A DNA stretch of 62,181 nucleotides, the filler included, from Vermamoeba vermiformis (taxonomy: Eukaryota), in the NCBI GenBank assembly GCA_045837725.1. It is 6 parts of 6 records of this genome, joined end to end, with 100 filler letters (N's around TTAATTAATTAA, not from the genome) between each part and the next. Parts side by side here need not be neighbours in the genome. Positions count along the whole stretch, not along the records: positions 1 to 14,687 come from JBEWZL010000177.1; 5 more parts are not named here. One strand, written 5' to 3'. Shown one piece after another: positions 1-59,642 of the stretch (position 1 is the stretch's first letter; every line of letters starts with the position of its first letter). Under the pieces are notes generated by a model. The model searched no databases and was not told the origin of the DNA. It was given only the letters and a program-made list of their open reading frames with translations. Position numbers and translations under genes: made by a program.

Positions 1-197
1 CAAACTGACCCGTGCAAGCAACAGAATGAATACAGGAATGCATCCTCTGTTTGTGCGTAGAATTATTATCCCTAAGGCATCCAAGAGTAAGTTAAAAGTG
101 CATTTTCGTGGATTATAGTATTTATTAGGTTACTACAGTTTAGGGTTTCGCGTTCTGAAGGGCAAATAACACCCTAGCACTGCAGAACAGGGTGTTG

Positions 198-363
198 AAA
201 CTACGCCCTTGCAAACCAGAACGGGGGCGTAGTCCTCGAAACTACGCCCTTGCAAACCAGAACGGGGGTGTAGTCCTCAAAACTACACCCTCACAAGCCA
301 GAACAAGGGTGTAGTCCTTGAAACTACACCCTTACAAGCTAGAACAAGGGTGTAGCCTTCAAA
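198..363. repeat. Tandem repeat, 41-bp unit x4, internally palindromic
   Basis: Unit AAACTACGCCCTTGCAAACCAGAACGGGGGCGTAGTCCTCG; arms ACTACGCCC/GGGCGTAGT. Confidence 0.9.
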
Positions 364-929
364 CTCAGGGACATAACTATCTGCGTCTTATTTATTTACT
401 GTGCACAACTGGTTGCGTGACCAGCTGGACACAGGCAAGGAAGTGACAGGGCACAGAGTGCAACGAGAGAGTGCCCAAGCCAGTCACAGAGGCAGAGAGC
501 ATGAGTGCCAGCAAGGAACAGCAAGCAAAGTGATGTGTGGTGAGAGCTCATGACACGGTGTGCAATCAGCTTGACGAGCAGCTTGCTGCAGTGTGCACAG
601 TGGTGCGTGCAGTGTCATCAGCATGCAGTGCGCTGTCACTGCTTAACTGTCACGTGTGATGCGCAGTGCGGCAGTGAATGTGAACAGCGTGCTCAACCAG
701 ATCGATGAACTCGCACTGCTCGGCCAATGGGTGCGCTGGGCAATGCTACCGGTGCGAGGTTAGTGCTGGAACTAGTATGCGTACACATCATTCGACGCAC
801 CTGCTATGCTTTCACGGGCCTTGGCCACGGCGTCGAGTAATTCTTGATATCTGTTGTGGAAGTACACTTGGCCTTGGTGCTGTGGCTCGTGGCCTATGCG
901 CGCCGTGTGCGTATAGTGGCATCAAAGCG

Positions 930-2789
930 ATTCATATATACTACAGGGCTTGGCCAAACAGGGCTAGCCCTAAAAATTATCTAAAAAGTTTTGTAAAGTC
1001 ACACTATACTGGCAGTTTTTCAACCAAGAGTTCGACATTATATATATAGTTAGGCTTAGCTAATTTAAGGCTTATAGGCCTAAAGCCTGGAAAATGTCAT
1101 ATTTTTGAATAAAACCCCATGATTCGAATAAACGTTATTTATTTTTGAATATACAATTATGGCTAAAATCTGTACAATCTTCATTATATATATAGTTAGG
1201 CTTAGCTAATTTAAGGCTTATAGGCCTAAAGCCTGGAAAATGTCATATTTTTGAATAAACGTTATTTATTTTTGAATATACAATTATGCCTTAAATCAGT
1301 ACTATCTTTGTTTTCCCAATTTTGAATCACAAACATTGTTTTCCCATCCATTTGCCTTGGCAGGTTTACGATGAAGACTGAGCCTAAAGTTAAGGAACTT
1401 AGTTTCATCGGGTAACTATTTTGAATATGCATACTTACAAAATGTCTATTCATTTGTATGCACGTCCAACCAGTAGAGTGCAGAATTCTCGATCAACCGT
1501 AGTCCTTGGACTACGGTCAAATGCAGAATTCTCGACTAACCGTAGTCCGAGGACTACGCTCAAACAAGGAATTCTTGAAGACCTGATGTGTACCAGCCTA
1601 ATCATGAAGGGTCAGAATATTTGAATATGCAAAATAGTAAAATGTATATTCATTTTTTTACCTATGGGCCAGTCATCTACAGCGAGTGGTGGGAGGTTGC
1701 AGCGACCACATCGAACTGCAACTGAGCATCTCCTGGATAATGTCAATATTTTGAATATGCAAAAAAAATAGTGTCTATGCATTGTCATAGGGCACTACAT
1801 TGACTTTAACAATTCCTCGAGTGTAGTCCGAGGACTACGGTCAAATACAGAATTCTCAACTAACCGTAGTCCCAGGACTACAGTCAAATGCAGAATTCCT
1901 GACTGAGCGTAGTCCAAGGACTATGGTCAAATGCGGAATTTGCGACTAACCGTAGTCCAAGGACTACGCTCAAATGCAGAATTCTTGACATACCTGAAAA
2001 CGGGCAAAGCAGCTTAAATTGTCTCTATGACCTGTAGAAGGGTATATAAGTAATTTTGAATATACATTAATTAAAAGTGTATATTCAAAAGTTTGTAAAG
2101 ATAACGTGACTGTAGACCAAGGACTACGGTCAAATGCAGAATTCCCAACTGAGCGTAGTCCAAGGACTACGGTCAAATCAAGAATTCTCAACTAACCGTA
2201 GTCCAAGGACTACGCTCAAATGCAGAATTCCTGACAACTGGTCAGGGTTATACTGTATACTTCGAGCGTAGTCCGAGGACTACGGTCAAATGCAGAATTC
2301 TCAACTAACCGTAGTCCAAGGACTACGCTCAAATGCAGAATTCATGACATACTTGAACAGGGAGAAACTGCCCAAAGTTATAACAGGTGACCTGAGAAAG
2401 GGAATGTAAGTTATTTTGCATATACATTAATCTAATTTGTCTATTCAAAAGTTTGAAAAGGTGAATTCCCAACTGAGCGTAGTCCAAGGACTACGGTCAA
2501 AGATTCGCACCTATAACCCTGAAGACTTGCATAACCCTAACAGTGCAGAATAAGTCCAAACCATCCAATATAGCCATTGCATATTACTTGTATGCTATAG
2601 TAAGGTAGATTAGCACCAGAGTGACAAAATAAAGAATTGAATTTGAATATTTAAAAAAAAATAATAACTATTTATTTTCGTGGGTCCGCATTTGATTACT
2701 TACTGCTGCAATGAAAGGAAGCCATGCAAATACAGGTGTTCTTATACATTCATATATACTACAGGGCTTGGCCAAACAGGGCTAGCCCT
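930..2789. repeat. Segment bounded by identical 42-bp direct repeats (930-971, 2748-2789), containing palindromic 43-bp satellite clusters
   Basis: ATTCATATATACTACAGGGCTTGGCCAAACAGGGCTAGCCCT occurs twice. Inside are a duplicated block (~1037 and ~1182) and clusters of CGTAGTCCAAGGACTACGGTCAAATGCAGAATTC at ~1480-2500. Confidence 0.8.
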
Positions 2790-2895
2790 CAAAACTACTC
2801 TGAAAGTAATAAAACCAAGGATAATTTGCTCGTTTGTTCCGATTTATGGACCAGGGCACCAGGAGCTAGCAAGAGTTGCCTAGTGCTAGCGACAG

Positions 2896-3118
2896 CGAAC
2901 GCTAGTGACAGTCGCCGAACACTAGTGACAGTTGCCAAGCGCTAACGACAGTCGCCGAACACTAGTGACAGTCGCCGAGCGCTAACGACAGTCGCCGAGC
3001 GCTAACGACAGTCGCCGAGCGCTAACGATAGTCGTTGAGTGTTAACGAGAGTCACCGAGCGCTAATGAGAGTCGCCTAGCGCTAAAAAGAGTCACCAAGC
3101 ACTAACAAGAGTCACTGA
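2896..3118. repeat. Short-unit tandem repeat (GCTAACGACAGTCGCCGAGC-like, ~20 bp)
   Basis: About 10 directly visible, progressively degenerate copies. Confidence 0.9.
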
Positions 3119-3139
3119 ATGTGGACAGGCATAAATAGT

Positions 3140-3900
3140 TTAAGAACTTTATTAATTATATTACAATTTTACAAACCTGAATACAAAGAGTTAGATAAAA
3201 TACAGATAGATAAAATCCAAGTTGTAAACTTAGTGAAGTCCTGCAAGGTAGTCTCCAGTGGGAGAAGATGTAAAAAAAAATTAAAGTCCAAAACCTCGTG
3301 ACCGCACTGGTCACGAGCTAAGAAAAATCATGTATAGTGCAAAGTCTAACAGAGGTCGTCTCCAGCGGGAGACGATGTCTAAAAAAACTAAGTCCAACAG
3401 AGGTCGTCTCCAGCGGGAGACGATGTCAAAAAAAACTAAGTCCAACAGAGGTCGTCTCCAGCCGGAGACGATGTAAAAAACTTACCGCGCAGGTTGTTGC
3501 AGGTCGTAATGTGCCTGGCAGGGTGTAATGGCTTGTAGGACTAGGAGATCGTTAGAGGGAGTGAAAAAAATAATTATCTGGCTTACCTAGTGCTGGAGGC
3601 TCGTCGCAAGTGGTAAGCACGCACCAAGTTTCTTTTTAATATGCACTATGCAGTTCTTGGGGTCAGCTGCCCTACACAAATGGATGAATGTTAGATGCCG
3701 CGCATCTGAAAAAACGGATTTAAATTTTTTTTGCTTACCGAAAGCTGCATACTTTGCGCTACCACCCTGAATACATGCCCCTTGAGTTTAGCCAAAGCAC
3801 CTAGCAGTGAGCTCGAATAATATGAAGCACGACCCACGACCGATCAGCTGTAAAACGAAATTGTGAGTTTAGCCAACGAAATGGGCAGAATTAATATTTA
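3140..3900 (-). ncRNA. Putative spliced non-coding transcript, divergent from the large lncRNA locus
   Basis: Minus-strand donors (CTTACC at ~3481, ~3582, ~3734) with branch/acceptor signals; exon ~3739-3848 has stops in all three frames; AATAAA on minus strand near 3148. Confidence 0.35.
3342..3480. repeat. 48-bp tandem repeat x3 with hairpin TCGTCTCC-AGCG-GGAGACGA
   Basis: Visible copies; a degenerate fourth copy near 3247. Confidence 0.85.
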
Positions 3901-4079
3901 ATTAGGGAAACTCACCTCCGTGCAATACGCACTGTGCGAGCACACATTCGGCAGCAGACAGCCGGCCGATCGTCACCACCCTGGTAACGAAAGCAGTTGC
4001 GCTGCGTTCAACAACGCAACTAGACAAGAATATTAAAAATAAAAAATAACTAAAATAAATCGACCTTTGTGGTGATCGT

Positions 4080-7000
4080 CTTGGTGAGTATTTGTGCAAG
4101 AAGTCTCGTGCGTTTTTGTCTGTCCCTCCCGTGCCAGGATTTATCCCAGCACAAAAACAATTTTTGGCTGCACGTGCCTCTCGACGCCCGTCGGTTTTCG
4201 CTGTCGACGCACGTCGGCTTTCACGGCATTGACTAAATTGGAAGTGACCGTTACTCACGGTGTAAAAACCTTGACAGATCGACCACAAGGGTCGATTTAT
4301 TTATTTATTGTTATTACTGCATTAAGTACCGCGCCACAGCATTAGAGCCGCTCCAGCGCCAGTTAAATATCTGATCAGATGCTGATGTGAAAACTTATGC
4401 GTTATTTTGCATCAGCAATGCCACAGATCGACCACAAGGGTCGAAATATTTATTTTATGCAGCTTATCACAGCAGACAGTAACGCGCCACGGTCGCCACG
4501 GCCGTTCAGCGCTAGTTATTTAGAGATTTGATATCAAGCTGCGAACTCGTATTCGCGACAGATCGACCACAAGGGTCGGTTTGTTCATTTAGATTATTTG
4601 TATGGAATCAGCAGACACGCGCCGAACGACAATCAGCGTCGTTGCAGCACGAGACAATGTGCGAGATCTAAGGATTTGCGCGAATCTCGGTGTAGAAACT
4701 CTGAGATAAATCAAGGTAATATCTTTATGTATACGCCTCCATTTTTTTTCTAAATGTTGTTTTATTTCAATTATTTCTGTCAAATAATTGGAAGATTCGG
4801 ATGGAGCTCACGCGTCAATTTAAAATATCAAATTACATTAATTTATACGGTTCGAGCTTCGTGCTCGTGCAAAATTAAAATTTATTTGCGTTATATTGTT
4901 AAAATAATTCTCTAACTTTAAATTTCATAGTTATCTTGCGGTTGTGTTCAAACCTAGCCAGATCGTTCACGGGCTCGTGCAACAAAGCGTGACAATCCAA
5001 CACATAGTAAGTAGTTTTTATTTACATTTATTGATATGATATTCAAAAACTTAATAGTATTTAGCAGTGTAACGGTCAACGATACCGGATCTGTAGCGAT
5101 ATCACGATAACTGTGTTGCGAATAGCATCGCTATCGCTTGGTAAGTATAGGTATCTATACTGAATAACAATTACTAACGGTTTTATTCAATTAGAATTAT
5201 GCAGAACATTCAGATACGAGACGACTCGGCATCCAACTTGATATCGGATCCAATAAAATTCAAGAGGCCGCATAAGAACGACTCCTAAGTAATTTAATAA
5301 TTATAAAACTATGATTATCAACACGTTGTAATATTAGAAATTAAAGGACTGCCCTTCAAGGAAATTGAACGGATTCGGTGCGCGATCTGGCGTTAGAATT
5401 TCTGTCGAAGGACTGGTGAGTCAGGTACCTTATAAAAACGTTTAGGATACTACTAATAACACGATTATAGGCTGGTAAGGGTCACAGCGATGAAGTGAAC
5501 GGATCAGATTGAGAGCCTGAGCGGATTCGCGAGTGGCAAGTCGTGCTGGTCGTAACCGTAGGCAAGTTAATTGACTAAATTAAGGTATTTTAATACATTT
5601 CCTAACGCGTTGTTATTGTCAGGATTTAACATACTCTGTGACTGCCAATTAAATATGCGCATCGATCCCGCTAACGGTAAGCAAAATACGATTAAATTGT
5701 AATTGGTAACAGTATAATAATAGTTTATTAACGTACTGATAACTTGATTTAGGAGAAGATGATTGGATTTGTGCGCGATCGAGGCAACGACCTCGGATCT
5801 GATTTAAACGAATAAAACACATTGATCGCGTTTAAGGTAAGAACAACGCGTTTATTACTATTATTACTACGTACTAATACCAGTTTTACGCGGGTATTAG
5901 TTGGCACTGCTCTCAAACGGATCTCACCCAGCGAAGAGCGATCAAGAAGATCAAACAATTGCGTAAGTACAGTAATTTTTTAATTACCACTTTATTAGTT
6001 TGCCCAGTGCTTTACTTTATTCATGCAGGAACCTCTCTGCACCCCGCGCTAAAATTATCGAACTTAATAAACCGCATCGATTGCGCTAATAGTAAGTAGA
6101 GGTTATTTAATGTGTTGGTTAGGTTGAAACGTGCTAATATAGTTTTTTATAGTTTAAGCGTGTTCTACTGATTTAACTAATCCGGTGCACGCGATCTGAC
6201 ACGCTCATATCGTAGCTATCCGAAGGTGGTAGGACGTAAGTAGCATAAATCAATTTGAAGACATAATCACTAATATTATTTACCAATAGATGGCATAGAG
6301 TTGAAAAGTACGATCCGCAACTGCTGTCGAAGAACGCGTTGGATCTCACACGAGCAATTTTAAATTGTAACAAACAATAAAAAACTAATTAATTTAATTA
6401 CTCGAACGATTACTTGTTAGACAAATCCCGAAGATCTGGTGCCGTTATTATTTTCTAACTTTTGACAGATCGACCACGAGGGTCAATTTTTTTTTTTGTT
6501 ATTACAGTGATGCTTAACAGCATACAGTAACGCGCCACGGCATCAGAGCCGTTTCAGCGCGAGTTATTTCGAAGATTGACTCGGATTCGCAACAGATCGA
6601 CCACAAGGGTCGATTTGGTTATTTAAATAGTTTATTCAATATCAATACACGCGCGCCAAACGACAATCAGCGTCGTTCCAGCGCGGCTTTAAGATCGCGA
6701 ACAAAACGCGATCAAATCTCGGTGCAGTGACCAAGATAAATTAAGGTAAGATTTTTATATATACAATTCCACCATTTATAACATTAATCTATCGTAAATT
6801 CAAATTTAAATTTTCAAGTAGATCCGGATCGAGCCAAGTGCTCGGACTTTATCCGGATTTTTAATTAATAACGATAGAACTATACTAAATACAATATTCT
6901 AACACTTAAATTTTTATTTAGATTAGGTTCACGATTTTTTACCGCGATCGAAAGTTTTCTAGTGACTTTCTGTTCGCGAGATCCCGACCACCAATGGTCG

Positions 7001-10000
7001 TATTATTGTCTTCTGGTGCCCTCCGTTCGTGTCCCGCTGCAGGGACGATCGCCATTGCTCGCCGACGGGGTCGGTAACTTGATGGCGAGATCGAATCCGT
7101 CCAGACTCTCGAAATAATTCAGTAAGTAATTTAATATATTCAATAGCGATAAAATAATCATTGAAATGCGTTAATTAATCATTTAAAAATCAAGTTAAAT
7201 TTTTAAAATTATAGCGAATCGGATCGAGCTTCGTGCTCGCGTAAAATTTGAATTATTGTTTTGCTTATTATCACCATAATATAAAAATCGTTATTTTGTA
7301 GGTTATTTGAGCGTCAGTATTAGGACGCGATTTCTAGATCGAGCATAAGTCGATTGCTCAAACCCCGGTCATTTCTCAAGCGTAAGCAATTTAAATACGT
7401 TAATTTATTGTTATTTAACAATCTAACACTTTTATTTTAGGTGTCAAAAGTTGACGAGGGCGGATCTTGAACGCGATCTTCTCGCGTTATCAGATCCGTT
7501 ACATCACCCATAATAGCCCTGTAAGTGCGTTTCAAGTTAGACATTGCTTAATACTGACCCATTATATTACTAGAAATAACGAAGACGACTACGGAGGAAA
7601 ATTACGAGATCGAGATCCGACGAGTCTCTATCGGTTAAAATTTCTTTGCGGGGCATCGATTGGTTTAAACGTAAGTGATCCCCCTTAAATATTAGTATAA
7701 TAACTCACTGATAACAATTTTACGTTCAGGAGATGACACGGAGCTGGGGCCAGAGATCGCGCACACAACAACCTGATCTCTCATAAGTTCAGTGACGCGC
7801 ATCGATCGCGTCAAAAGTAAGTACAATTAATTTTACATTATAATGGTAATAAACTGACATCTTTATTTATTATTAGAATCGTTTAATAGAATTTTTGGTG
7901 GATTTGGTGGCGCGAGATCTAGCGCGTTAACACTCTTGTCAGTGCTAATTGATGGACCGAGGTAAGGCAATATAATGTTTAACTGATCATTGCTAACGTT
8001 ATCATAGATCGACAAAGGTCAGAGCGACCCTTGAGCGCGATAATTCGGAACGGGATCCAACGCATCTCGATCCGTTAAAGTTTTGCTGAGGAGCTCTGAT
8101 GACGCTTAAAGTAAGTAAATTACGTTATATAACATGGTTAATGATTATTGTAATACCCATTTATTGTTTAGCTTGCCTGTTACGCGTTGATCTCGGACTT
8201 TGACGGGTCAAGCAAAAGTACGGCTGTACGGATCTGATCACGTTCAATATTTTATTGACACGAGGAAAAAGAGCTGGTAAATATTAATAATAGGTTTTAT
8301 GATACACGTACTAATGCTACGTTACAACAGATCGAGTCAATTAGCTGAAAGTACGGAGAAGTACGATCCGCAACCTCAGCGGATTCATGATCTGAAAATC
8401 AGCGCGGTAGTTAGTTACTTGGTAAGTTAATTTATGTTGTACTATAATATACAAACTCTTAATAACCCCTTTATTTTGTCAGAATTAATGCGTGATTGTT
8501 TTTACGCTGATCCCCTCATTGATCCCAATTGCGGCAATTAATGCGCGCATTGATCGCGCTTAAAGTAAGTTAATTCGTTATAAATTTATATTTATTACGT
8601 TCTAACATTGTTTATTTATTAGTACAAGGGTCTGGAGAAATTAGTAAATTCGGTGAAGCGATCTAGCGCGTTATTAACCGCTGCTTCGAAGAAGATAATG
8701 AGCCTAGGTACGTTATAAAAATAATAAGTGTATCACATCTAACATGCGTAAAGGTTGGTAAGGGTCACGGCGACCCTTGAAGTGATTGGGTGAGATCGAG
8801 ATCCGGCCTGTCTCGATCCGTCAAAGCCCGAGTTTACCGGGAATGTTAGCCATGGTAAGTTAAAAGAAGGCCCACCATATTAAATAATATCGCTTTAATG
8901 ACCCAGATTTGCTCTCGTCACTGATTTGAGTAGAGGCGCGGATCGAGAAACGAACGATCTGATCCAACAACAAGTTAACGCATCGATTGCACTAAAAGTA
9001 AGCAAAAAGCATTTAATATGTAATTATAACGTACTAATAGCGCTTTTATCATAGGCTAGTTGTACGAGAACGACTTAGCGAATCCGCGATGCTAAGACCA
9101 AGTTGTAGCATGAAGGTAAGTTTATTTACACTATTTTAACTTGTAAAATTAATTGTAAAGGACTTTAAATAAAAAGTTTGGCATAAATAAAATTAATAAA
9201 AATCTCCCGCGGGAGGGAATCACAAATATCTGCGTTATTTTTATTAAAACTTTGACAGATCGACCACAAGGGTCGTCATATTTATTTGTTATTGATCATT
9301 AACAGATGATAGTCACGCGCCACGATTGCAGCAGCCGTTCAGCGCGAGTTATTTTGATTTGAAGTCGATGCGAACTTGGATTCGCATCAGATCGACCACA
9401 AGGGTCGAATTATTAATATTATTTAGTTCACTGTGAATATTATACACGCGCCCAACGATATTCAGCGTCGTTGCAGCGCGACATACAAGTCAGCAATTTG
9501 GCCGTTTGATCTCGGAGTAGTGACCGAGATCTTGCAAGGTAATAATTTTCCTATCATCCTTCCACCATTTATAATACATAGAAATCGTTTATTTAATTAT
9601 TAAATTTTCAATTAAAAAATTAAAGATCCGGATTAGAGCTTAGTGCTCGAATTTTATCCGGATTTTTAAAAAAAATATGTAATTACATGTAACGCATTGA
9701 TCTAATATTAATTTTTTATTACAAGATTGATTGCAAAAACACGAGCGCGATCGAAAGTTTTCTTGACTTTCGTACCGCGAGATCCCGACCACCAATGGTC
9801 GTTTCAGTGTATGCTCGTGCTTTTCGTTCGTGTCCCGCTGCAGGGACGATCACCACTGCTCACCGACGGGGTCGGCAACTAGATGGCGAGATCGGATGCG
9901 TTGGACGCATCGAAACATTCCGTAAGTAATTACGTAGGAATAATAACAATCAATATGACGCAATAAATGCGTCTTTTTGAAATTTAAAAATCAAGGAATT

Positions 10001-12115
10001 TTTTTTTTAAATTAGTGAAATCGGATCGAGCTTCGTGCTCGTGCAAAATTTAAATAATTGTTTATTTTATTACTAATACATATGCTAATGATTATTTGAT
10101 AGGTAATTTGAGCGTCAATACGAAGACGCTGGTTCTAGATCGAGCGCGAAGTAGATCGCTCGATTACCGGTAGTGGATCAAGAGTAAGTGGTTAAAACAT
10201 TTTATTTATTATTATTTAATATCCTTAATGCGTTTTATTTAGGTTAAACAAATTCACCGTGGCGGATCTCGAACGCGATCTTCCCGCGTTAACAACTTCG
10301 ATGCTTGATGGACAATGACCCTGTAAGTATTCTCAGTGTTAAAAATCAAGCAATACTAACGCGTTATATACATAGAAATGGAAAATACAAGGCCTTATAA
10401 AAGTTAACGAGATCGAGATCCAAAGCGTCTTTGAAAGTTAATATGGAGAGCATCGATTGCTCCGAAAGTAAGTAAAATCTCTTATTTATTAATAGAATAG
10501 TTCATTGATACCGATTTTAGGGTTAGGAGAGGACACGAAGCTTGGGTCAGAGATCGCATCTCGACATCCGATCTCTCAGAAGTTAGTAACACGCATCGAT
10601 CGCTTTGAAAGTAAGTAAAATTGATTTTTTAATAATTAAGGTTTGCTATTTTAAATACTAACGTTTTAATCTCTAGATTTGATCGCGGCGCTGCTTACGC
10701 AAGTAGACGCGGGTTAGAGCGCATTTATTGCGTAAAAGGTTAGTGCAATTCAATGCATATATTTATATTGTATTTTTTAATTATTTTGGTAGAATACCAC
10801 TCCACGGACTTAGCGGTTCCGAGATCACCGGAGTTGCGCGTTATTTATCTTCAATAATAACGCTGTATAACGCGGTAAGTAGCTAATTTAATAGTAGATG
10901 GGACGTGCTAACACTTTATTGAACAGAACATATCAAGCCCTTGAATAGTTAGTCAGTTGGCGCGGATCGATCTAGCAAGATCGGATCCGAAAAAATTGAA
11001 TGGCCTTATTCAAAGGCTACTCAAGGTAAGTAAATATTGTTTAATATTAATCTTTAAATAATTTTTAAAGCTTATTTTAATTACAGGACTTCGCTGATGC
11101 GATCACGGATCTTAGGCGCGATCTGACCCAGCGAGGAAATATCGGTCAGATCGCCAACAATCTCTCAAAAGTAAGTAAATCCTTGTTCCGTATGATGAAT
11201 AATAACGCCTTATATTATTAGAAATGGATGTGAAGGGTTTTTTTACGAGAAAGAAGCGGATCGAGAACGACAGCTCGATCAAGATAAATTCTCACGTAAC
11301 GCATCGATCGCGTTAAAAGTAAGTAGACCTTTCTAAAATTCGTTTATGCGCTATATTAATATTCTTTATATCAACAGAAAATTGGGCAGTGCGGACTTGG
11401 TAAATCTGTGACGCGCGATCTGCCAGCACTGAAAACTTTCAGTCTAACTCGAGACTGACTAAGGTAAGTGCATCGTTATATTAATAATAACGAGTATTAA
11501 CCCCTTCATTAGTGTAAAGTGCTCACAGGTGTCATCATCAAAATGGCGCGATCCGGTCACGGCAAAGTCAAAACTTGGCGTCAAGTCTTATGGTAAGTCT
11601 GAATAACAAATAGTTTATTTATATACGTCGACTATATATTATTACTGTTATTAACATCAGTTATAAATAGATTTCAAGTTGGTAAACGATCGCACGATCC
11701 GCGCACTCAGTTGGACATTGATTTGAAATAGATTGTTGGTTATTGCGAGGCGAACGAAAGGGTAAGTCAATTTAAGCTAAATCTAAGCAATTTTGATAGC
11801 TAACAATCAACAGATTGGTCTGTAATACTTAGTTGGATTACGTGGCGCATCCTGTTTTGTCGTTACACGAGCCTTGGTCGTAAGTCAGAACAAAATCAAT
11901 CCTATTTTATTAATACATGACACTAATATTAATGTAATAGATGGTTGGTTAGGGCGAAGGGTTTGCTGGTGGTGGATCCGCTCCTCTCTTACCGGATCTC
12001 AGTCCAGCGATTAACTGGTGCCAAGTTTGACACCATTTATGGCTATTCAATGTTAATATACACGGAAGAAGTTATTAATTTGTATCAAAACGGTCATACA
12101 TATAAATAAATTGTT
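4080..12115 (+). ncRNA. Putative multi-exon (~40 introns) structured long non-coding RNA made of three diverged tandem units
   Basis: GTAAG...CTAAC/CTAAT...YAG introns every ~120-170 bp. The exon at 10103-10182 has stops in all frames, and no long ORF exists in 8 kb. Hairpin motifs repeat; AATAAA at ~12103. Confidence 0.6.
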
Positions 12116-13851
12116 CGTCGTGTCTGCGAACAAAACTTTTCTTCTAATTTCTTGCCTTTTAGTTTTGTTCAGTTTACCTCCTTTGCGGGTACTGAGCAAC
12201 ACAACTGCAACATACTTTGACTAGTTTAATATACTCAGCGCTTCAACTACGCTTCAACTATGCTACATCCGCTCAAGTCAAGTTTGCTGGCAATTTCAAT
12301 TAAATGGACGTAAGTTTAAGTTATTTTATTTTATTATATCCAAATAATAACATCTAAATTATATTTGTACACTGCGAATATTTCTGTGGCGTTTGAGATG
12401 CATAGGGCTAGCATTGGTTCTACGCATCATGGCAACAGAATCCATTCATATTTGGTATATGATGTCCTTACTATTAGTTATATATGCCATATCAATAGGA
12501 CCCCTTGATCTGCTTGTGACTCTGACACCCAAAATCCAGTGCAAGATTTTGCCAGAAGTGGATATCAGCTTCTTCTTTTCAGAATCAGCTCATACTTGTA
12601 CCATAGTATATTCATACAAATTGTTATTGATCCATGCAATACTGCAAGGATCACATGTTTGCGGCTGTTGACGCATCCAGCTAGCCACCAGATCTCAGAG
12701 CCACGATATTGGATTGATGAATCTTTTTCATATTTTTATGTTACTACATTTATGTTTATTTATCATAATAGTATCGACTTGTTCCGACAGTTGATCCATA
12801 CTCGGCTGATTTGAGTCCCTAATCAGCTTCACATTAACCTTGAGATTGGATTCAAATCCATGCCAAATCAATTATAAACATATTAAAACATGATATAAAC
12901 AGTGTATCTGATAGTTTGAAGTTGAAATGTCAAGTTGATCATAGGTGGAAGAAGGCAACGCTAACCCAGGAGTTGAGGTCAAGTACCAAAGTTGGGATTT
13001 GGCCTCAGCATCAGTGTTTAATCAATGAATAATAGCTAATATTAGTAAAGTAATAGATCTATGTTGAAGATGGGTTGATCTGATCCCCTTATCTGAGTTG
13101 ACATCCAAGGGCTGTGGCTTGGTAAAGTTGAAAGTATGGTTTGAATCAGCAATCCCAGAGTTAGATACATGGTTGGATAGGGCTTTAAGCAGCCTTCAAA
13201 ACAGTACCAGTCTTGCCTCTGTGGCTGTCCTAGTAAGGGAGAAAATCAAGTTAGGGTTTAGAGAGTATACAATGGGATCTTCGGCGCTGTCCGAGGCCGC
13301 TAGGCCGAGGGCAGCGCGTCTCAAAATTTGCACAAATATACTTCAGAGGAGGCTAATTATGCCCAAATTATCAAAAACAATGAGAAAGTTGAGGTAAATC
13401 CGAAACAATTTTGCGAAAATTTGGGTGCCGATGACAATAACTGATGAGAGGGCTGATGACGATGCTGATGACAGGCTTTGGTGAAAAAAGATGATCAGAA
13501 TAATAAAATAATACCTTTAATACATGTAAATATGCTGTTACAAGCTTAAAAATTGATTTTGGAAAGGATTCGGCAAAGTGCGAAAAAAATTAAAAAAATC
13601 AAATTGCGCAATTGATGCGCTGCTTGTAAAAAGGGTTCAAAATATGAATAAAGAGCATGAAAATGAGCAAAAAAGGTGATAAATTACAATAAAATATCAA
13701 ATCTGCAAATTTGCAGATAGGCAGAAAAGAGGCTGTTTTTGATGTTTAACTAGTACCAGGCAGGCTGAAAGACTGCCTGCAATCAATGGGAAGCATCCAA
13801 TTGGCCTTGATACAATAGATCAAGAATAGTTATGGCTGTGCTAATAGTATT

Positions 13852-13870
13852 TTTAGGGTTAGGGTTAGGG
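13852..13870 (+). repeat. Interstitial telomeric repeat (TTAGGG)3
   Basis: TTAGGGTTAGGGTTAGGG seen directly. Confidence 0.9.
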
Positions 13871-14474
13871 ATCTGTTCCGTGAGGCCGTGCCGGCAGGCA
13901 CGGCCGCGTAGCGAACTCCCCTTTATACCAGTACTAGTAGGCCCAGACCAATTATGGTCCTAGGTGGTTGCGTCAGATTAGCAGGTGAGGACTCGGGGCC
14001 AGACCGTGACGAACATGACTTTGCGAAAAAATTTTGACTTAGAATCTTTGCAGATGGGGCAGTGGAATGCAGTGTGCCAGGTTGTTGCCCTTTGGGTATG
14101 AGGTAGACTAGGCCCTAGACTGTATCATATCCAAAGGGGAGCCCTGGGACTGGTCAGGACTTGGCACAAAATGCCTGCAAAAATTTTGGCTTGGGGGCCA
14201 ACTTGACTCTACAGCTCAGTCATGGACTGGTAATCAAGTGGTTCTTGTTGGGATAGAATAGTCTCATATAGTGTTACTTACAGTATGAGTTTGGTTGAGA
14301 TCCCTGCCAAAAACCTGACTTGAAAAAAATCTTGGGGGCCCCAGTGTTTGATGACAGCTCTGCTGATCCAGAGCTTCAATATGGCTCATATTCATATGGT
14401 AATATAGTCTATATGTAAGCATACTATGGTGTAAATATGGCTGCATTTGGAGGAATTTTTCAATTTGGATCTTG

Positions 14475-14687
14475 GTTAGGGAAGGTCAGGGTTAGGGTTA
14501 GGGTTAGGGTTAGGGTTAGGGCTAGGGCTGGGGCTAGGGTTAGGGTTGATTCATGGGGTTAGGGTTAGGGTTAGGGTTAGGGTTAGGGGTTAGGGTTAGG
14601 GTTAGGGTTAGGGTTAGGGTTAGGGTTAGGGTTAGGGTTAGGGTTAGGGTTAGGGTTAGGGTTAGGGTTAGGGTTAGGGTTAGGGTT
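14475..14687 (+). repeat. Telomere (TTAGGG)n, chromosome end
   Basis: ~35 TTAGGG units with proximal variants (CTAGGG, CTGGGG, TCAGGG) running to the contig end, G-rich strand pointing outward. Confidence 0.95.
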
Positions 14688-14787
14688 NNNNNNNNNNNNN
14701 NNNNNNNNNNNNNNNNNNNNNNNNNNNNNNNTTAATTAATTAANNNNNNNNNNNNNNNNNNNNNNNNNNNNNNNNNNNNNNNNNNNN
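14688..14787. other. Artificial contig spacer
   Basis: N44-TTAATTAATTAA-N44 (stops in six frames); identical spacers at 24439-24538, 33551-33650, 47767-47866, 59543-59642. Confidence 0.97.
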
Positions 14788-24538: not shown

Positions 24539-26967
24539 TGATGGTTACAGGTATGTATTGGCAATCACAACAGGTTAATTCTAACCATGACATCAGATTT
24601 ACTGAGGATAAATCGTACTTGAAGAATTTCATATCATTTTTGCAGCAATACTACTCCAACACGAACTCTGCCAGAGCTAAACTTAAATACTCAGCATGGA
24701 CATATGAAGCACTGAAAAGTTTTCCTGTTCAAAATTCTGCCACAGAATGCGGTCCAATGTTACTTCGTGGAGCTCTGGACCTGGCTTACATTGACTCTGA
24801 TAAGCAATTTCAGTGGACAGAACAAGACACTCCTTTCCTTCGTAGGTGGTTTGCAGCTATTATTAACAGTTGGGTACATGGCTCAAAGAGAACAATGCAC
24901 GAATTATTCACCCAAAAATCTGCTGTTGCTGCAGCTCCACAAGTAACAACAACAATAAATCAATCATTACCTGCGTATACAAATTCCCCAACAAAGAAGT
25001 CAGATACTGAAGTAGCTGTGTTAATGCAATCACAGCCAGACAGCGACCACTTGATTAACAACTTGTTACGTCTGCCATTATTGGACTTGTTGCGGCTAGC
25101 AATCTTAGCCAGGATTGCTCTTGCAGATAACTCGTGCAATAGACACCGTGACTATAGAAAGCAAAAGGATTGGCTTTTGGACAAGATAGACCAATGGCCT
25201 CAGAATATATTACAGCAAATTCCAACATTAAAAAAGAGCTACTTAACTCTTGTGCTGCAGTCTGACTTCTGTTATCCAACTGGCAATTTGCGTTCTGACT
25301 TTGGAATGGGCCTTCTTTGTTGGACTACAAAGTGTTGCAGCTCAAGATGCATGTTAACTTTAATGCAAGATTTAATTGCAAATCAACTGGAGTGGAAGCA
25401 AAGTTCCAATGAAGATAGAAACAAATTCATTGCTTGGAAGTCAGAAAGAACAGTCTGTATCAAAGAAAACGAGACATACCGCTTTCGAAAAGAGAGAAAT
25501 CACTGTACTAGAGCATGGCAGGCAGTCTATGGGGTTCATTCAAAGCGAATGAAATTGGCTGCAAGTTTAAAGATTGGCCCAGAGAAGTCTGATGCATGGA
25601 AAGAAGCAGTGAAGCAGCTCAGTTCTCAACAATTGGAGGAAATTGATAACCATATCACTAAGACTTTGCTGCCAAATCCTTTTGCCCCTAAAGGAGTAAA
25701 AGATCATCAATATGTCCTCCCTCCCAATATTACTAGTGTTCACCAACTTTATTGGGACTACGTTTGGAATCATATTTCCCAGTGCTCACACTTCAAAAGA
25801 AATCAAAGGACATCAGATGGAGTTATTTTATTTGAAACAACAAAGAGAAAACTGGAAGGCAAAGAGAAGACACCTGTAATTAAGCGCCGTAGAGTTGAGC
25901 TTTCCTCCAGAGGATTCAGTTCACGAACAACTTTCATTCAATCTGGGGTGTACCAACAAATGAAAGAATCATCTCAGTTGCATTCACAGTTTTGTACTTG
26001 TGTTGTTCATTATGGATCGTGGTACAAGCACTTCAGCAGGCTTTGGAGTTCTCAAGTAACCTCAAATGCATTTGGCAGAACATGGTGCACAGCATGCCAA
26101 AGTTTCATCGATGAATCAACTAAGTGGCATCGCTTTAAGAACTCTCAATCTGAGGAAACTAAAAAATCCAAAAAGTACTTTGATGAACGAAGCAAATGGA
26201 AGGCAATCAAATTAGCATGGAGCAAACACTACTCACATGCACAACAAGAGAGAGAGCATCATGAATTACTCCGTCAACAGGCAGCAAATGGAACACTTCG
26301 GCTATTTTGCTTTGACTTTAAAACTAGTTTAGTTTGTCCCTACTGGGGTTACCATTGTGCTCCTAATCAAGTTCATTATCTCTCAAGAATGAATGCCTAT
26401 TTCTTTGGAATAGTTAATGAAGGAGACCCAGATTCATTTACTGGCTACGTGTATCCAGAAAACTTTGTGGACTCTGATGGACCAGCGGCAACAAAGAAAG
26501 GAGCCTCTCATGTAATTGCTATGCTCTATAACTTCATGCAAAGAAATGGCTTTACTGAAGATAAGAGGAAGACAGACAGAAAGTTACACTTTGCAGCAGA
26601 TAATTGCTCTGGTCAAAATAAGAACCAGCATGTTCTTAAGTTTTTCTGCTCAGCAATTGACCTTGGATGGGCTGACGATATTCTATTGGACTTCATGATT
26701 CCTGGACACACTAAATTTGGACCTGACAGATGGTTTGGCAAAATTGGCAAAGAAATCATCAGATTAGATGCTTGGAATATTGAACAACTTGTTGAAAACA
26801 TCAGGAAAAGTTTGTCATACAAAGAATATGTGGAAGATTTGCGAAAGCTAGATTGTGTCAACTTCAAAACTTTTCTAGATAGTCACTACCGCAAACCAGA
26901 CTCCCTCAAAGTTTCTGAGCAATATCACTTCTTTTTAGGGTTAGGGTTATATTCTCCATCCGGATGA
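24539..26967 (+). CDS. Sola-type (DUF7869-like) DDD transposase with N-terminal Ulp1/C48 peptidase C-terminal half; both ends incomplete
   Basis: PVQNSATECG and WTEQDTPFLRRW (Ulp1-like); CCSSRC and CTAC Cys motifs; CFDFK, ADNCSGQNKN, GHTKFGPDRWFG catalytic motifs. Confidence 0.75.
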
Positions 26968-33701: not shown

Positions 33702-36700
33702 TCATTTGCTCAATCTCTTCTTTTCATAGTCAGCCCATACTTCATTCTTGCTTTGGTCTGCATCTATGAAGCAATTACGTGGCTCCCAGGACTGTTGTCC
33801 TCCGTCCCAAAGTACCAGCCACTCTAACTTACGTCCAACTTTTCGGTGGTCTATAATACTTTTAACTACCCATTCTGCCTCATCTGCAAACAAAAATGAG
33901 TAACAATTAAGAATAAACCTATGATTTGAAGGTACCTTCAACCTGCCGTTTACGCTTCTTTAAATTGACCATTGTTGGTTCTTTTTCTGATGAGACCACA
34001 AGCTCTGGTCCTTCACGTTTAACTTGGCCAATCTGGAACAATTCTGTCATAACTTTCACCTCTTCTGTTCTCTCCAGACCTTTGTAATATTCGATGCCCT
34101 GCAACATGTTAGTAACTGAATAGTAAAGTACAATCCTCACCTTTTCAGAAAGAAATTTAGAGGTCTTTGTCACTATTGTGGCTATCAACTCCTTGGACAC
34201 AGGGTTTGGTTGAAGTGCTACAGGTTCGGCTGACGGAGAATGACTAAACACTGATTCTTCAACTTCAATCCAATTTTCATCGAGAGATTTTTGTTTGAAC
34301 AGGAGTGTTGGAGTGCCATCAAGTCCTTTCTTTAGCCAAAAAGCATATTTGTCTTTGTGACCACTCATTGATGAGCAGAATGTGAGAAACCACTTTTTCC
34401 AGGAAAGAATGGGCCATTGGAGTTCATGAATATACACATCCTTGGGATAGATTGACTTTGCAAATGTAATAGCATCATTCATAGTTTCAATAACTTTCCA
34501 TTGGAAGTAAGTATGAAATGGTTGAAATAGTCGGTCAATATCTTCATGTGTGTGGCCAGGTTGTAAATAATGAATGAAAACCTCTTCAAACCACTCATTG
34601 TGCACTAGTAATGCTGCAAATTGAAGCAAATATTGATTTTTGCCTTCAGCTGCACTGTTATCTACTTGTAAATACAGTGTTGTTGGTCTATTTTGTGGTT
34701 GAATTGATAGCAAAGATTCTTTCAAATGATGGAACAGGAGTGAGATGTAAAAGTCTGCATCTGCAATGTAATCAGACTCCTTGAAAAACACTAACTCTTT
34801 CTTGTTCAGTCCGTGGTTAATGAAGCCTACAAAGCTTGCTTGCAAAAGGTTAATATTCGCCCATTCTTTTGGCATTGGATGGTGCTGAGGAAGTTGAAAA
34901 CTGCCACTTTTGTCTGTAATGATGCTCATCTTCAAGAAGGGTTGCTTAATGGCAATATCTGCTCTTTGCCGATACATCTGTCTGTCCTTTGTAATATAAT
35001 CTATGTGTTCATTCATCTGCTGTTTCAATTGCAACAGCTTATCTTCTGAAGGGCACTGTAGTCGCCGTTGTTTAATCAATAAACAGGTTGAACATTTGCC
35101 AAGTCGAGTCTCCTTCGGGCATTTAACATTCTAAAATCTTTAGCAAAATTGAAAGATGCACATAGTAACTTACTGCAAACCATTTGCGCTTGACCTGCTT
35201 GAAAGTTTCATAGCTTGGTGTGTCAGCTCCTGGGTGAAGATTGGCAAATTCACCAGAAAACAGATTGTACCATTCCTTCACACTTGCATTGGTTAGCAAT
35301 CACAGTATCAGAACAAGAACTTACGTCATGTGTGATGGTAAGTGAATTTCATCTTTAGTTGGCACATAATCACCATATGTATTGCAATAGTTTTGGATCC
35401 AAGCGGCTACTGAGTCTCTCTTTGGGGAGTCATACACCCAAAAGCAATTACCATGCATATGAGCCTTTGTTCCATTTAGGTATTGTTGCTTGCATTGAAT
35501 AACCTTGTCGACAGACACTCCATAAACTCTGCAAAATGCAAGCTGACAAACTGATACACCTCCTACCAGGAAAGCAACAGCTGGGCTATCAATGTTCATG
35601 TTTGTTTCAAAAAATTTCATCAGCCACTTAGTTTTCTGACTGTCATTGAGCTCAGCCACCATCTTGCGGCTTTCCAGAATCTGGCTGGTAGTGAAGAGTT
35701 CAGTACATCTAGCCTTACAACAGTTTGTAGCTGCAACTGGAAAATGTTAGTTAGATCTAAAATTTGCAAGTTATAAGTACCTTTGTTAATTGAATCAGCC
35801 CCAAGTAACTTTTGTTTTTTTAATGACTTGAGTTTTTCAGATGGAATGATATTCTTTGTTAGGACTTGGAACAGATTCTGCGAGGCAATTGGGGTACTTT
35901 CTGGCTGCACTTGCAAGGTAGTAAATAGGTCTTTTGCATTGATGGCTTTCGAAACAGGTGCAGAATTCTAACAAGAGTTAATGCTTAGAAGAACTAAACC
36001 AGGTTAAATTACCTGTCGTTTTAAGTACACAATGTGGTCATAATATATCTTAGATTTGCTTGTTTCAAGTGTTTCTGCCACTGGAGTGGCAATTCCTTCA
36101 TTTTGCATGCCATCATAGAAATACAAGACTGACTGTTGCACAAAATAGCATGTAGTGTGGGCTCCAGTGCACATCATTACAGCTAATAGGTCATACTGAC
36201 AATTGTTGACAGTTAAAACTGGCTCGATGGTTATATTTGGGTTGCTAAATTGCCTTTTGAGTCTTCCTAACTCGACAGTCAAAACTTGTGGCAACTCCAA
36301 TGTACCTACACAGTTTAATATCAAATTCATTTCTTCTAATTGAACTTACGATGTTCAACAGGTTGTATTCCACAATCATAGCAGTTGATGGGTAGCTGGC
36401 AGTTGTAGTCTGCTAAGTGGTTGAGTGCAGCTTGGAGTGAGAGTGTACTGTCAGTCAGTTTTTCTTCAACAAAAACTGCCACTTGATGAAATAGCTTTGT
36501 TGTTGTAGGACATTTGCAGTGGCTAACAACTTTAAGAGTAGAGACAAATAATGCTGATTCGGCAATTGACAGAGTTTTGAAAGCTGCCGTGAGTATTGCA
36601 CCAATTGAGACATAAGTCTTGCAAGGCACCCAGCCTACAACAGGACCAAGGGCATCTATCAGATCCAATTTTAATTGGTGTAGCCTTTCATTGGATAGTG

Positions 36701-44912: not shown

Positions 44913-46515
<1,603 letters not shown>

Positions 46516-56836: not shown

Positions 56837-57945
56837 TGCATGCAATTGCGTAAACCAGCATGCAATTAACCAAACTGGCTTGCAATTGCCAAAACTGCGC
56901 GCAATTGCCAAACCTGTATGCAATTTGCTGAAACTGCGCGCAATTGCCGAACCTGCGTGCAATTGCCGAACGTGTGCGCAATTGCCGAAACTGCGCGCAA
57001 TTATCGAACTGCACTCAATTGCTGAACTGCGCACAATTGCCGAACCTGCGCGCAATTGCCAAACTGCATGCTATTAACCAACTTGAATATATTTATGTGT
57101 TACACAGTACATATGCTTTACATAGCTTGCCAATGAATATCAAAGCTTCCACTTAGTATTTTCAAGTCAATTGAGGTCATAGTGACCAGCAATGGCTCCA
57201 TTCTATTAATTAAATCACCCATGAGGGATTTACATATAAAAAAAACAATAATTAGAGCCACTGGAATGTGACAGCAATGGTGAACAGTTTGCTCAGGAAA
57301 ATCATTGCCAACATGAACAAGCATTAAAGGGTGGATTACAAGGCAAGATCACTAGATAATTATTCCTTGGCAATTTGCATCACAGGTAGATAGGGCAAGT
57401 TGTGAGCCTGAGGCCAACCTGTGCATCCCCTCTCAGGCTCCTTCTATCTCCTACAGCTGCTCTGTAGTCTCCCAACCTCCTCTGTTACTTGCCCCTGGCT
57501 TTCCAATTTCTTTGCCTTGTGTACTAATCCTCTTGGATTAATTGTATTTTGCTTTATCTGGCAGAATTGGCTATGCCTGCTTGCGTCAGTGCTAGGGCAC
57601 ACTCAAGGTGTCCCAACATGTTGCTGCTAGTACCCAAAGAAAATGATGGATTGTGAATTGGCACAAGCAAATTGCCAAACCCTGTGTGCAATTTGCCGAA
57701 CTGCGTGCAATTGCCGAAACTGCACGCAATTGCCAAACTGCACGCAATTGCCGAACCTGCGCGCAATTGCTGAACGTGCGTGCAATTGCCGAAACTGCGC
57801 GCAATTGCCGAACCTGCATGCTATTGCCAAAACTACGTGCAATTGCTTAAACTATGTGCCGTATGCTGAAACTGCGTGCAATTTACTCAAACTGTGTGCA
57901 ATTGCATGCTTGTGCGTATAATTGCACGCATGTGCAAGCAGTTAC
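56837..57945. repeat. Two TGCGCGCAATTGCCGAA(A)C minisatellite arrays (56837-57075, 57653-57945) flanking a CpG-poor ~570-bp core
   Basis: 18-19-bp units with palindromic GCAATTGC seen directly. Confidence 0.85.
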
Positions 57946-59358
57946 AGCAAGTCTATTACGGCGTTCATGATAGTTGTCAGTGCGTTGACGTTTGCGTGAG
58001 TAGCAGTCATTCTGTTTGTGGCCTTTCTTCCCGCAGTTGTAGCAAGTGATGTGGTCGAGGCAGTCTTCCGAGCGATGGTTCCTACGACCACAATAGCGAC
58101 ATTCTCGATTGTTATTATAGAACTTACGTTGCCCATAGTGTCGATCGGTGCGAGTGTCCCGTTCTCTCGCACGATCTATCGCGTTGACATCGTTAAACTC
58201 TACGTGTGGAGCCACGGTCGTTCCCACGGAGTTTACGGAGGGCTGCGCGTTATTGACAACGTTGATGTTGTTAACGTTGTTCACTATTCGTGGTTTCTTC
58301 AAGTTCTCGTTATCAGCGATGATTTTAACGAGACCATAGTAGTCGACATTAGGATAGAAGACTTGAAGACCATCACGCAGGGATTGAGGCAATTTCTGCC
58401 ACAATATTCTCTTGCGATTGACATCGCTCAGCTGTAGCACGTGCGAAGAAGCCAACTCGAATTCACGTAAGAAGGTACTGAAGTTGACGTTGAGGGCGTC
58501 CCACTGCAACTCGTCGAGGCGTTCATGGTGGACTAGCTCGCTGTTGGCGGTGTAGAATGCATTTTCAAGCCATCGCAGGTACTCTTCAACGGGTCTCGCT
58601 GTTAAGTCCCTAAAAATGCCGTTAAATTGTTTGCGCACTTCCATGTCAATCTTCTCATAAAACAAAAGCTGTTTGGTATGCACAGACAAGCCTTGCGTTA
58701 GTTGACGAAACATGTGCGTCCAGGTCAGAGTATGTTCCGGGTTCCCGTTGAATTCTTTGATGACGGATCTGGCTGTCTTGAGTGCTTGCTTCCTATCCAC
58801 TGGAGGGTTTTCATTTCTTCTTCGTTGCTCTCTACGATTGCATAGATAATCTTCGTAATCTCGCGGGTCAAAGCTTTCGTCTTCGGATTCCGATCCAGAC
58901 TCGCTGGATCTTGACTCGTTAGATCTACGGCTGTCATGATTGCTACTGCTGGAACTAGAATCACTAGGCTCAGGCTCCTCGTTCTCTCCTCTTAGATCTT
59001 CTTCTTCGAGATTTTCCGCTGACGAATTTGACGGTTCTTCGTCGGAGTTTTCTCGTTCGTTCCGTCTTCGAGCAGCTTCTCTGCGATTGATTCTACGACG
59101 ATCTTCTAGTTGAGCTTCTTCTTCGTCGTTTCCTTCCTCCCCTTCTTCGTCTCTTGGTCTCCGTCCTCTTCTAACGTTAACGGCAGCGGCAGCACGTGCA
59201 CGATTTTCACGCAAAGTTCTCAAACGCCTTAGATTCTTCAAATCTTTGCGTTGTTCGTTCGTGAGCTCGTCGCGTGGAATTGCTTCTAACTCTTCAAGAG
59301 TATAATCTTTCCCTAACCGTCTCCTCCTTTCCATAATTGAGTTTTTCCGATGCACCAA
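57883..59358 (-). mobile_element. Retrotransposon Gag-like ORF with two CCHC zinc knuckles, truncated before pol
   Basis: CRYCGRRNHRSEDC and CYNCGKKGHKQNDC; capsid-like IKEFNGNP..W region; ORF runs into the minisatellite. Confidence 0.8.
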
Positions 59359-59642
59359 TGTAATGAAGGTGGTCGGATGCAGTTACCAAAAATAAAGAGA
59401 CGTGTGTTAGAGTTAACGAAAATAACAAATCGATTTATTTGACTGTCAGTCTCGTTACTATGTACAAGATACACGAATTTCGATTCGGAGATTTCTGTGA
59501 CATCACGTGTCACCACTCCGTCTATAATTAGCTTCATCACACNNNNNNNNNNNNNNNNNNNNNNNNNNNNNNNNNNNNNNNNNNNNTTAATTAATTAANN
59601 NNNNNNNNNNNNNNNNNNNNNNNNNNNNNNNNNNNNNNNNNN

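Follow-up and report, generated by a model that had tools for sequence, protein, structure and literature searches.

An intron-dense subtelomeric locus of Vermamoeba vermiformis, read as a probable cluster of non-coding RNA genes with a recurrent GATC core

What kind of gene, if any, is a stretch of chromosome-end DNA that carries dozens of well-formed introns and no reading frame to go with them? The question is raised by a locus of the amoeba Vermamoeba vermiformis (assembly GCA_045837725.1), which lies in a window of 62,181 nucleotides; by the window we mean the whole stretch of DNA that was analysed, six small contigs joined by runs of N around a TTAATTAATTAA linker. The locus sits on the first contig (positions 1–14687), which terminates in TTAGGG repeats from about position 14480, and the original prediction, made from the sequence alone, took it for the source of one giant, repetitive and highly structured long non-coding RNA (lncRNA). 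We read it instead as a tandem cluster of paralogous, intron-dense non-coding genes of RNA polymerase II type, whose mature RNA would act as a multivalent binding platform, and we put the probability of this reading at about one half. A family of spliced non-coding RNAs is the best reading of the locus because its splice signals are strand-specific and conserved, and because reads derived from related copies appear to be spliced.

The anatomy of the locus is that of a gene. In the curated model, 42 intron-like segments, all lying between 4716 and 11940, alternate on the plus strand with 43 GC-richer exons over positions 4278–12115, which amounts to about five introns per kb (42 introns in 7.8 kb). 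Forty-one of these segments have GT-AG boundaries and one has GC-AG boundaries; the donors comprise 27 GTAAGT, 14 other GT and a single GCAAGT sequence, and the acceptors 27 TAG, 13 CAG and 2 AAG. Most introns are short, with 35 of 42 measuring 46–76 nt (median 58) and the other seven 102–215 nt, as are most exons (37 of 43 measure 54–105 nt, with a median of 84), and GC content is 0.46 in exons vs. 0.255 in introns. Donors follow one another at a regular spacing of 128–151 nt. Between 4001 and 12000 GTAAGT occurs 27 times on the plus strand and never on the minus strand (mean 2.4 and maximum 7 in dinucleotide shuffles), and complete sets of donor, branch-like site and YAG acceptor number 20 on the plus strand and none on the minus strand, against 0.41 in shuffles. 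These segments hence combine GT-AG boundaries on one strand with branch-like motifs, as spliceosomal introns do, and they display the same signals as the introns of a GAPDH gene located elsewhere in the window (minus strand, approximately 44950–46470), which has four introns of about 60–200 nt with GTAAGT donors in three of the four, CTAAC- or CTAAT-type branch sites and YAG ends. The data support a locus built for splicing on the plus strand. In this respect the original prediction of canonical short introns alternating with GC-richer exons proved accurate, and all ten of the donors that it gave as examples are present, one of them moved from 10183 to 10184.

The same exons do not make a protein. 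Joined end to end they yield a product of 4,646 nt in which the longest ATG-initiated open reading frame (ORF) encodes 65 amino acids, and the longest stop-to-stop frames span 82, 93 and 81 codons, fewer than the 105 that shuffles reach on average. In period-3 power the exons (0.686) equal shuffles (0.721) and attain half the value of the real ORFs of the window (1.305; P = 8e-8), and paralogous exons are separated by frame-breaking indels of 1 and 2 nt. Taken together, the absence of an ORF, the absence of codon periodicity and the frame-breaking indels provide good support for a non-coding locus, as had been claimed at the outset, among other things on the basis of exon 10103–10183, which does contain stops in all three frames. 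Threading ORFs through arbitrary GT..AG pairs, a procedure that reached 3,825 nt on the plus strand and 2,708 nt on the minus strand, was set aside as uninformative because it succeeded on both strands. An old multi-exon gene for a repeat protein, its frames since eroded, would account for the architecture of one module per exon, and also for a number of stops in the spliced sequence (223) that lies below that of mononucleotide shuffles (260 ± 12). These stops, however, are distributed evenly across the three frames (66, 80 and 77), no frame extends beyond the shuffle mean, and codon periodicity is lacking. Furthermore, splice sites and exon cores have been kept where frames have not, whereas the donors of a dead gene would decay at the background rate, and we regard a decayed coding family as highly improbable.

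The donors have not decayed at that rate, as becomes apparent from the repeat structure of the locus. Self-comparison reveals heads of 277–438 nt that occur three times, from 4278, 6469 and 9259, and that define three head-plus-body units (Table 1). Each head consists of two or three sub-repeats, in which a hairpin H1 (ATCGACC-ACAAG-GGTCGAT, with seven copies on the plus strand, three of them starting at 4277, 6468 and 9258) comes first, an AT-rich spacer second and H2, a nested CG-rich hairpin, third. Collinearity links units 2 and 3 over 1,452 nt (71% identity), and unit 1 has the head and scattered exon cores in common with them; of the three diverged units put forward originally, the triplication is therefore real for the heads, while collinearity is restricted to units 2 and 3. 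Within unit 2, a module of about 750 nt with some five exons is present twice from 7730 onward, as seen in the match of 7796–7929 with 8544–8673. The nesting of heads, units and modules therefore points to a locus that grew as an exon-plus-intron module of about 145 bp was duplicated over and over; Tandem Repeats Finder is blind to these modules, which have diverged too far. Unit 2 shares 34 of 36 donor-hexamer positions with unit 3, compared to a background identity of about 69% (P = 2e-4), which demonstrates that selection acts on donor sites. Among the older duplicates, invariant columns cluster at a GGTG..GCGA core, the donor, the branch TAAC and the acceptor, so that the islands that have been kept comprise the exon cores, the splice and branch sites, and two hairpins inside long introns.

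The exon cores are marked by a single tetramer. GATC is the most over-represented tetramer of the exons, with 90 occurrences vs. 17.8 expected, and this enrichment is specific to them: introns contain 9 occurrences (7.2 expected), the other contigs 204 (171 expected) and the long ORFs 37 (44 expected). The tetramer is present in 40 of the 43 exons and in 34 of the 37 short ones, where a median of 34 nt separates its first occurrence from the beginning of the exon, and it is embedded in a CG-rich core of the type GG.GCGC-GATC-T. It is located in the arms of inverted repeats and not at the centers of palindromes. The mature RNA of such a locus would hence display many copies of a short conserved motif, as sponge and scaffold RNAs do, and the recurrence of the core in nearly every exon lends support to the comparison with such RNAs that was drawn in the original prediction.

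Evidence on splicing itself comes from three RNA-seq runs (X1–X3), matched by species label only and possibly derived from another strain, which were mapped to positions 3500–13200. Most informative are partial reads, whose junctions were compared by eye. These reads fit short conserved cores (at least 93% alike, as at 7898–7930) and then enter unrelated sequence, a pattern expected of paralogues. In three sets of reads, all of them from related copies, the intron is missing at a predicted junction. Past 7104, 14 reads in X3 and 6 in X2 continue with the remaining 17 nt of the exon and then with the start of the next exon (7302 onward), which they match at 11 of 13 positions, compared to 3 of 13 for the start of the intron. 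The joint 10462->7729, represented by seven reads from the three runs with four letters between the two matches, has the exact spacing of an exon end followed by an exon start. Lastly, at the joint 6736->6965 (seven reads) AAG stands at the predicted donor with no GT after it, and a 176-nt intron is skipped together with its conserved hairpin. The comparison supports the view that related copies are transcribed and that three predicted introns are removed from their transcripts. The extent of any transcript of the locus itself is a different matter. AATAAA signals are found not only at 12105, about 2.4 kb from the telomere repeats as had been noted, but also in both unit junctions (6376, and 9168, 9186 and 9195), so that three tandem genes are as likely as the single giant RNA of about 4 kb that was proposed initially; the last exon of unit 2, however, terminates at a perfect GTAAGT (9116).

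The existence of related copies also invites a reading without any function for the host, in which a non-coding segment, selfish or neutral, multiplies at chromosome ends through tandem and segmental duplication, and its many strong introns are retained since efficient splicing shields its transcripts from RNA-based silencing; in a yeast, stalled splicing has been put forward as a trigger of silencing by small RNAs. A multi-copy family with cores at least 93% alike and unrelated flanks is what such a repeat would leave behind, and the repeat-rich subtelomeric setting, the higher-order tandem build and the poor expression of this copy are in line with it. Inspection of the locus, however, disclosed no terminal inverted repeats, target-site duplications or coding capacity for mobility. 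In addition, short exon cores have been strongly kept across old duplicates that have otherwise drifted, which looks like a constraint on the mature RNA or on the DNA, and not on introns alone. We consider a selfish or neutral repeat without host function unlikely.

Inverted repeats are the second conspicuous property of the locus. The locus contains 41 perfect 7-bp inverted repeats with loops of 3–30 nt, whereas shuffles have 6.0 on average and never more than 15, and about 60% of exons harbor a perfect stem of 6–11 bp, most of these stems measuring 6–8 bp and the longest 11 bp. Predicted folding is strong in the heads (z of -4.1 to -5.6), and between units 2 and 3 the head and three exon pairs, one of them the 200-nt exon, reach conserved-fold z values of -2.8 to -5.0. 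When the seven head sub-repeats are aligned, pairing extends to 87% of cells, vs. about 30% with the partners slid, and the compensatory change reported for the exon hairpins (GAGCA/TGCTC vs. GAGCG/CGCTC) is indeed present. Only a few exons fall below -4, and the median exon has a z of -0.55 (n = 43), so that the initial description of a highly structured locus would suit at most the heads and some exons, but not the typical exon. The hairpin elements of the long introns take the form GATCGAGC-loop-GCTCG and are absent from the related-copy reads; they could be intron-borne small RNAs or splicing aids.

With hairpins in exons and long introns alike, the locus might be a precursor from which small RNAs are excised by an enzyme of the RNase III type. 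The perfect stems, with GATC in both of their arms, and the conserved intronic hairpins would suit this role. The stems are nonetheless limited to 6–11 bp, far from the 20 bp or more of a typical precursor, and stems of that length are too short for Dicer-type processing. A search of Rfam with positions 1–14690 in unspliced form, accepting E values up to 1, returned no match in the locus, in agreement with the original failure to recognize a known family, and three weak rows elsewhere, far below gathering scores; no small-RNA family reached threshold, and the two microRNA rows obtained lie outside the locus. The related-copy reads, moreover, correspond to long spliced RNA, although libraries of this kind would lose small RNAs. 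A small-RNA precursor thus appears quite improbable.

Several observations count against a spliced RNA family, and part of them bear on an alternative in which the locus operates as DNA. The reads that fall on the locus number 39, 53 and 60 out of about 13 million records per run, almost all of them partial fits and most 90–99% alike, and depth is at most 1.5 in every bin and zero over 10952–12247; this copy is, so, silent in the sampled RNA or absent from the sequenced strain, and splicing, which the earlier work had proposed to verify with RNA-seq, is visible in related copies and not in a locus that is almost uncovered. The libraries, furthermore, carry no strand information. By our own weighting, the overall identity between units is about 70% for exon columns, hardly above the value of about 67% for intron columns, and the claim that splice sites and hairpins are conserved while introns diverge consequently stands for the donors and the other kept islands, but not for exons and introns as a whole. 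Conserved folds score as well or better when the minus strand is used, and among the single mismatches of the stems 19 are of G.U type and 21 of A.C type; because these mismatches are unbiased, nothing marks the plus-strand RNA as the strand that pairs. Covariation in the heads is weak: only 2 of 18 pairs change on both sides, and 31 of 500 shuffles reach the observed score. Relatives from outside the window were found neither in Rfam nor in a metagenome scan with the 18-nt head motif, the 67 single matches of which all fell on contigs with at least 50% GC, showed no further similarity and were taken as chance. Known sponge or scaffold RNAs likewise show no relation to the locus, be it in sequence or in Rfam. 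Finally, the observed/expected ratio of CpG is 1.64 in introns and 1.58 in exons, while the flank on the telomere side has 0.49 and the other contigs 0.96, and an excess that is as high in introns as in exons points to a DNA-level property of the whole locus.

This property is central to the alternative of a DNA-level array, in which some 40 phased GATC/CGCG sites, about 143 bp apart, would be targets of binding or methylation that shape subtelomeric chromatin, and transcription and splicing would be secondary, serving for instance to keep the region open. Along with the CpG excess, the array would explain why the other enriched exon tetramers (CGCG, GCGC and TCGA) are palindromes like GATC, why the inverted repeats score alike on both strands with no bias of G.U over A.C, why exon plus intron recur with a regular period, and why no expression of this copy is visible. 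A pure array of DNA sites would not, however, retain on a single strand 27 perfect donors with their branch sites and acceptors. Strand specificity is also a property of the extended core CG[AC]GATC, with 24 occurrences vs. 10 of its reverse complement, and only 18 of the 90 GATC sites are palindromic one base further out. The spacing of the stems, which varies from 3 to 39 nt, is ill-suited to a dimeric DNA-binding protein, and related copies seemingly give rise to spliced RNA. We are accordingly inclined to give the DNA-level array no better than a small chance.

For the tandem cluster of non-coding RNA genes, a plausible history and mode of action can be outlined. The cluster would comprise three head-plus-body units on the plus strand, possibly joined in one read-through transcript, as well as a small unit that diverges from them on the minus strand, and it would be part of a multi-copy family in the same genome. 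It would have grown by repeated duplication of its basic module, an exon of about 84 nt plus an intron of about 58 nt, with the splice signals and the central, CG-rich, GATC-containing exon core being retained after each duplication and the remainder drifting. Splicing would then join some 12–15 cores per unit, or about 40 across the locus, many of them presented in hairpins of 6–11 bp, and, as the most economical mechanism, the mature RNA would serve as a sponge or scaffold for a factor that recognizes the core, be it a protein or other copies of the RNA itself through the self-complementary GAUC. The polymerase and the limits of the transcripts are inferred here, and partner and function are conjectural. 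A bolder version, which we put forward very tentatively, would see in the locus an undescribed class of non-coding RNA with one exon per binding module, in which extreme intron density assembles dozens of GAUC-centered cores, the RNA multimerizes or collects a factor that binds the cores, perhaps to scaffold a nuclear body or the chromatin of chromosome ends, and dense splicing, or the marks that it leaves on the RNA, is part of the mechanism.

Table 1. Features of the first contig, with positions counted along the whole window.
Feature	Position	Strand	Remarks
Small divergent unit	3140..4079	-	Four short GT-AG introns with donors at 3915, 3738, 3586 and 3485; no convincing ORF
Inverted H1 copy	4060..4079	-	Opens the small intron-bearing minus-strand unit
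CpG-containing spacer between outward-facing head motifs	4084..4277	+	
Unit 1 head	4278..4715	+	Three sub-repeats; fold z -4.09
Unit 1 body	4716..6468	+	11 short exons, 12 introns; one GC-AG intron at 5562-5622
Unit 2 head	6469..6745	+	Two sub-repeats; fold z -5.56
Unit 2 body	6746..9258	+	14 exons, 15 introns; includes the conserved 200-nt exon 6922-7121
Hairpin element in long intron	6821..6858	+	Counterpart at 9625-9663; conserved-fold z -6.47 (intron pair I_a)
Best-kept block	6963..7100	+	86% identity to 9764-9901; several short hairpins; also matched by related-copy reads
Second intronic hairpin element	7215-7241 / 10015-10042 / 4848-4870	+	Inside long introns
Unit 3 head	9259..9538	+	Two sub-repeats; fold z -4.24
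Unit 3 body	9539..12115	+	15 exons, 15 introns; stops just past the AATAAA at 12105
TTAGGG telomere repeats	14480..14687	+	Contig end; the locus would be transcribed towards the repeats

To the left of unit 1, two divergent units appear to flank a spacer of about 200 bp (Table 1), which could be a shared divergent promoter or, alternatively, the first intron (GTGAGT ... TTGACAG) of the plus-strand unit; related-copy reads pass through the equivalent of its TTGACAG unspliced. The 3' part of the small minus-strand unit is made up of a 48-nt hairpin tandem repeat. Five reads of X1 match up to 4059 and then continue into a pure run of A (median 66 nt). They resemble a poly(A) end on the plus strand just before the inverted head motif, even though the good introns to the left of this point lie on the minus strand.

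The surroundings of the locus are rich in repeats. Upstream of it, the contig carries many short hairpin-bearing tandem repeats (197–355, 1479–2340, 2910–3113 and 3342–3480) with periods of 41, 43/86, 20 and 48 nt and units such as GTAGTCC-AAG-GACTAC; the 43-nt repeats are the site of two weak microRNA-like rows of Rfam, far under thresholds. The interval between the locus and the telomere (12116–14470) is CpG-poor (0.49) and contains an interstitial TTAGGG run at 13853–13870. In the remainder of the window, features are not readable across the contig joins (14688–14787, 24439–24538, 33551–33650, 47767–47866 and 59543–59642). A 181-amino-acid exon of the GAPDH gene has 98% identity to a metatranscriptome protein and 70–78% to others among the matches listed. 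Two long intron-less ORFs, one at 24541–26967 (plus strand, 826 amino acids) and one at 33919–35130 (minus strand, 403 amino acids), have a ...DN..(G)(Q/K)NKN... stretch in common and look transposase-like by eye. An ORF of 499 amino acids at 57883–59382 (minus strand) combines an acidic, serine-rich N-terminal part with two CX2CX4HX4C zinc knuckles near its end and resembles a retroelement Gag.

The locus was also compared with several classes of RNA that it might have belonged to. A scan for tRNA and tmRNA returned no genes, no snoRNA family was found up to E = 1 in positions 1–14690, and a template for telomerase RNA is missing from the plus strand of the locus, where no CCCTAA occurs between 4000 and 12200 and the only TAACCCTAA lies at 2532, outside the locus. 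The literature yielded no report of an intron-dense, modular non-coding locus, which is weak evidence of absence, many journals and supplements being beyond reach.

Should the family be functional, it would represent a rare case in which selection maintains dozens of introns in an RNA without a frame, and introns, or splicing as such, would then have a part to play in a non-coding RNA. The role of introns and splicing in lncRNAs has been discussed and is hard to test. The modular build of the locus, with one core per exon, some 40 cores and a strand-specific motif, provides a handle both for a search for partners and for the study of dense splicing. It also conveys a warning for genome annotation, since gene callers based on proteins would skip or mis-model an 8-kb locus with perfect gene-like splice signals.

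The position of the locus among known systems is best appreciated by what it shares with each of them. With bursts of introners, in which a single mobile intron has entered coding genes as near-identical copies, it shares many short and regularly spaced introns. Its introns, however, form no sequence family, similarity between introns being limited in self-comparison to syntenic introns of units 2 and 3, and their host is non-coding. With snoRNA host genes of the GAS5/UHG type, which are multi-exon, spliced and non-coding, and whose functional RNAs reside in introns between dispensable exons, it has in common the multi-exon, non-coding build and the splice signals, but it appears as their inverse: 35 of its 42 introns measure only 46–76 nt, are poorly kept and contain no snoRNA, whereas the exon cores are kept.

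Two further comparisons concern position and transcript type. The passages on TERRA in PMC12566771 present subtelomeric transcripts that run towards the telomere, and do not describe them as intron-dense or modular. The locus is likewise subtelomeric, and it is oriented in such a way that read-through would yield UUAGGG RNA, but it ends at an AATAAA 2.4 kb ahead of the telomere repeats. As for fungal lncRNAs, the corresponding passages of the same source, a 2025 review, describe them as shorter, as usually intron-free in Neurospora, and as having fewer exons than coding genes in other fungi (PMC12566771). The locus would resemble them as a non-coding transcript of polymerase II type, its polymerase being presumed, and against what those passages report a unit with 12–15 introns would be an outlier.

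The closest analogy is offered by repeat-modular sponge and scaffold RNAs, such as NORAD with its PUMILIO sites, the A-repeat of Xist, the stem-loops of roX, bacterial CsrB and RsmZ, and the meiRNA of fission yeast. Like the locus with the GATC core of its short exons, they have no coding function and present a short motif many times over, often within small hairpins. In them, however, the repeats are generally contained in one or a few exons, whereas the locus of V. vermiformis gives nearly every module an exon of its own, bounded by strong introns.

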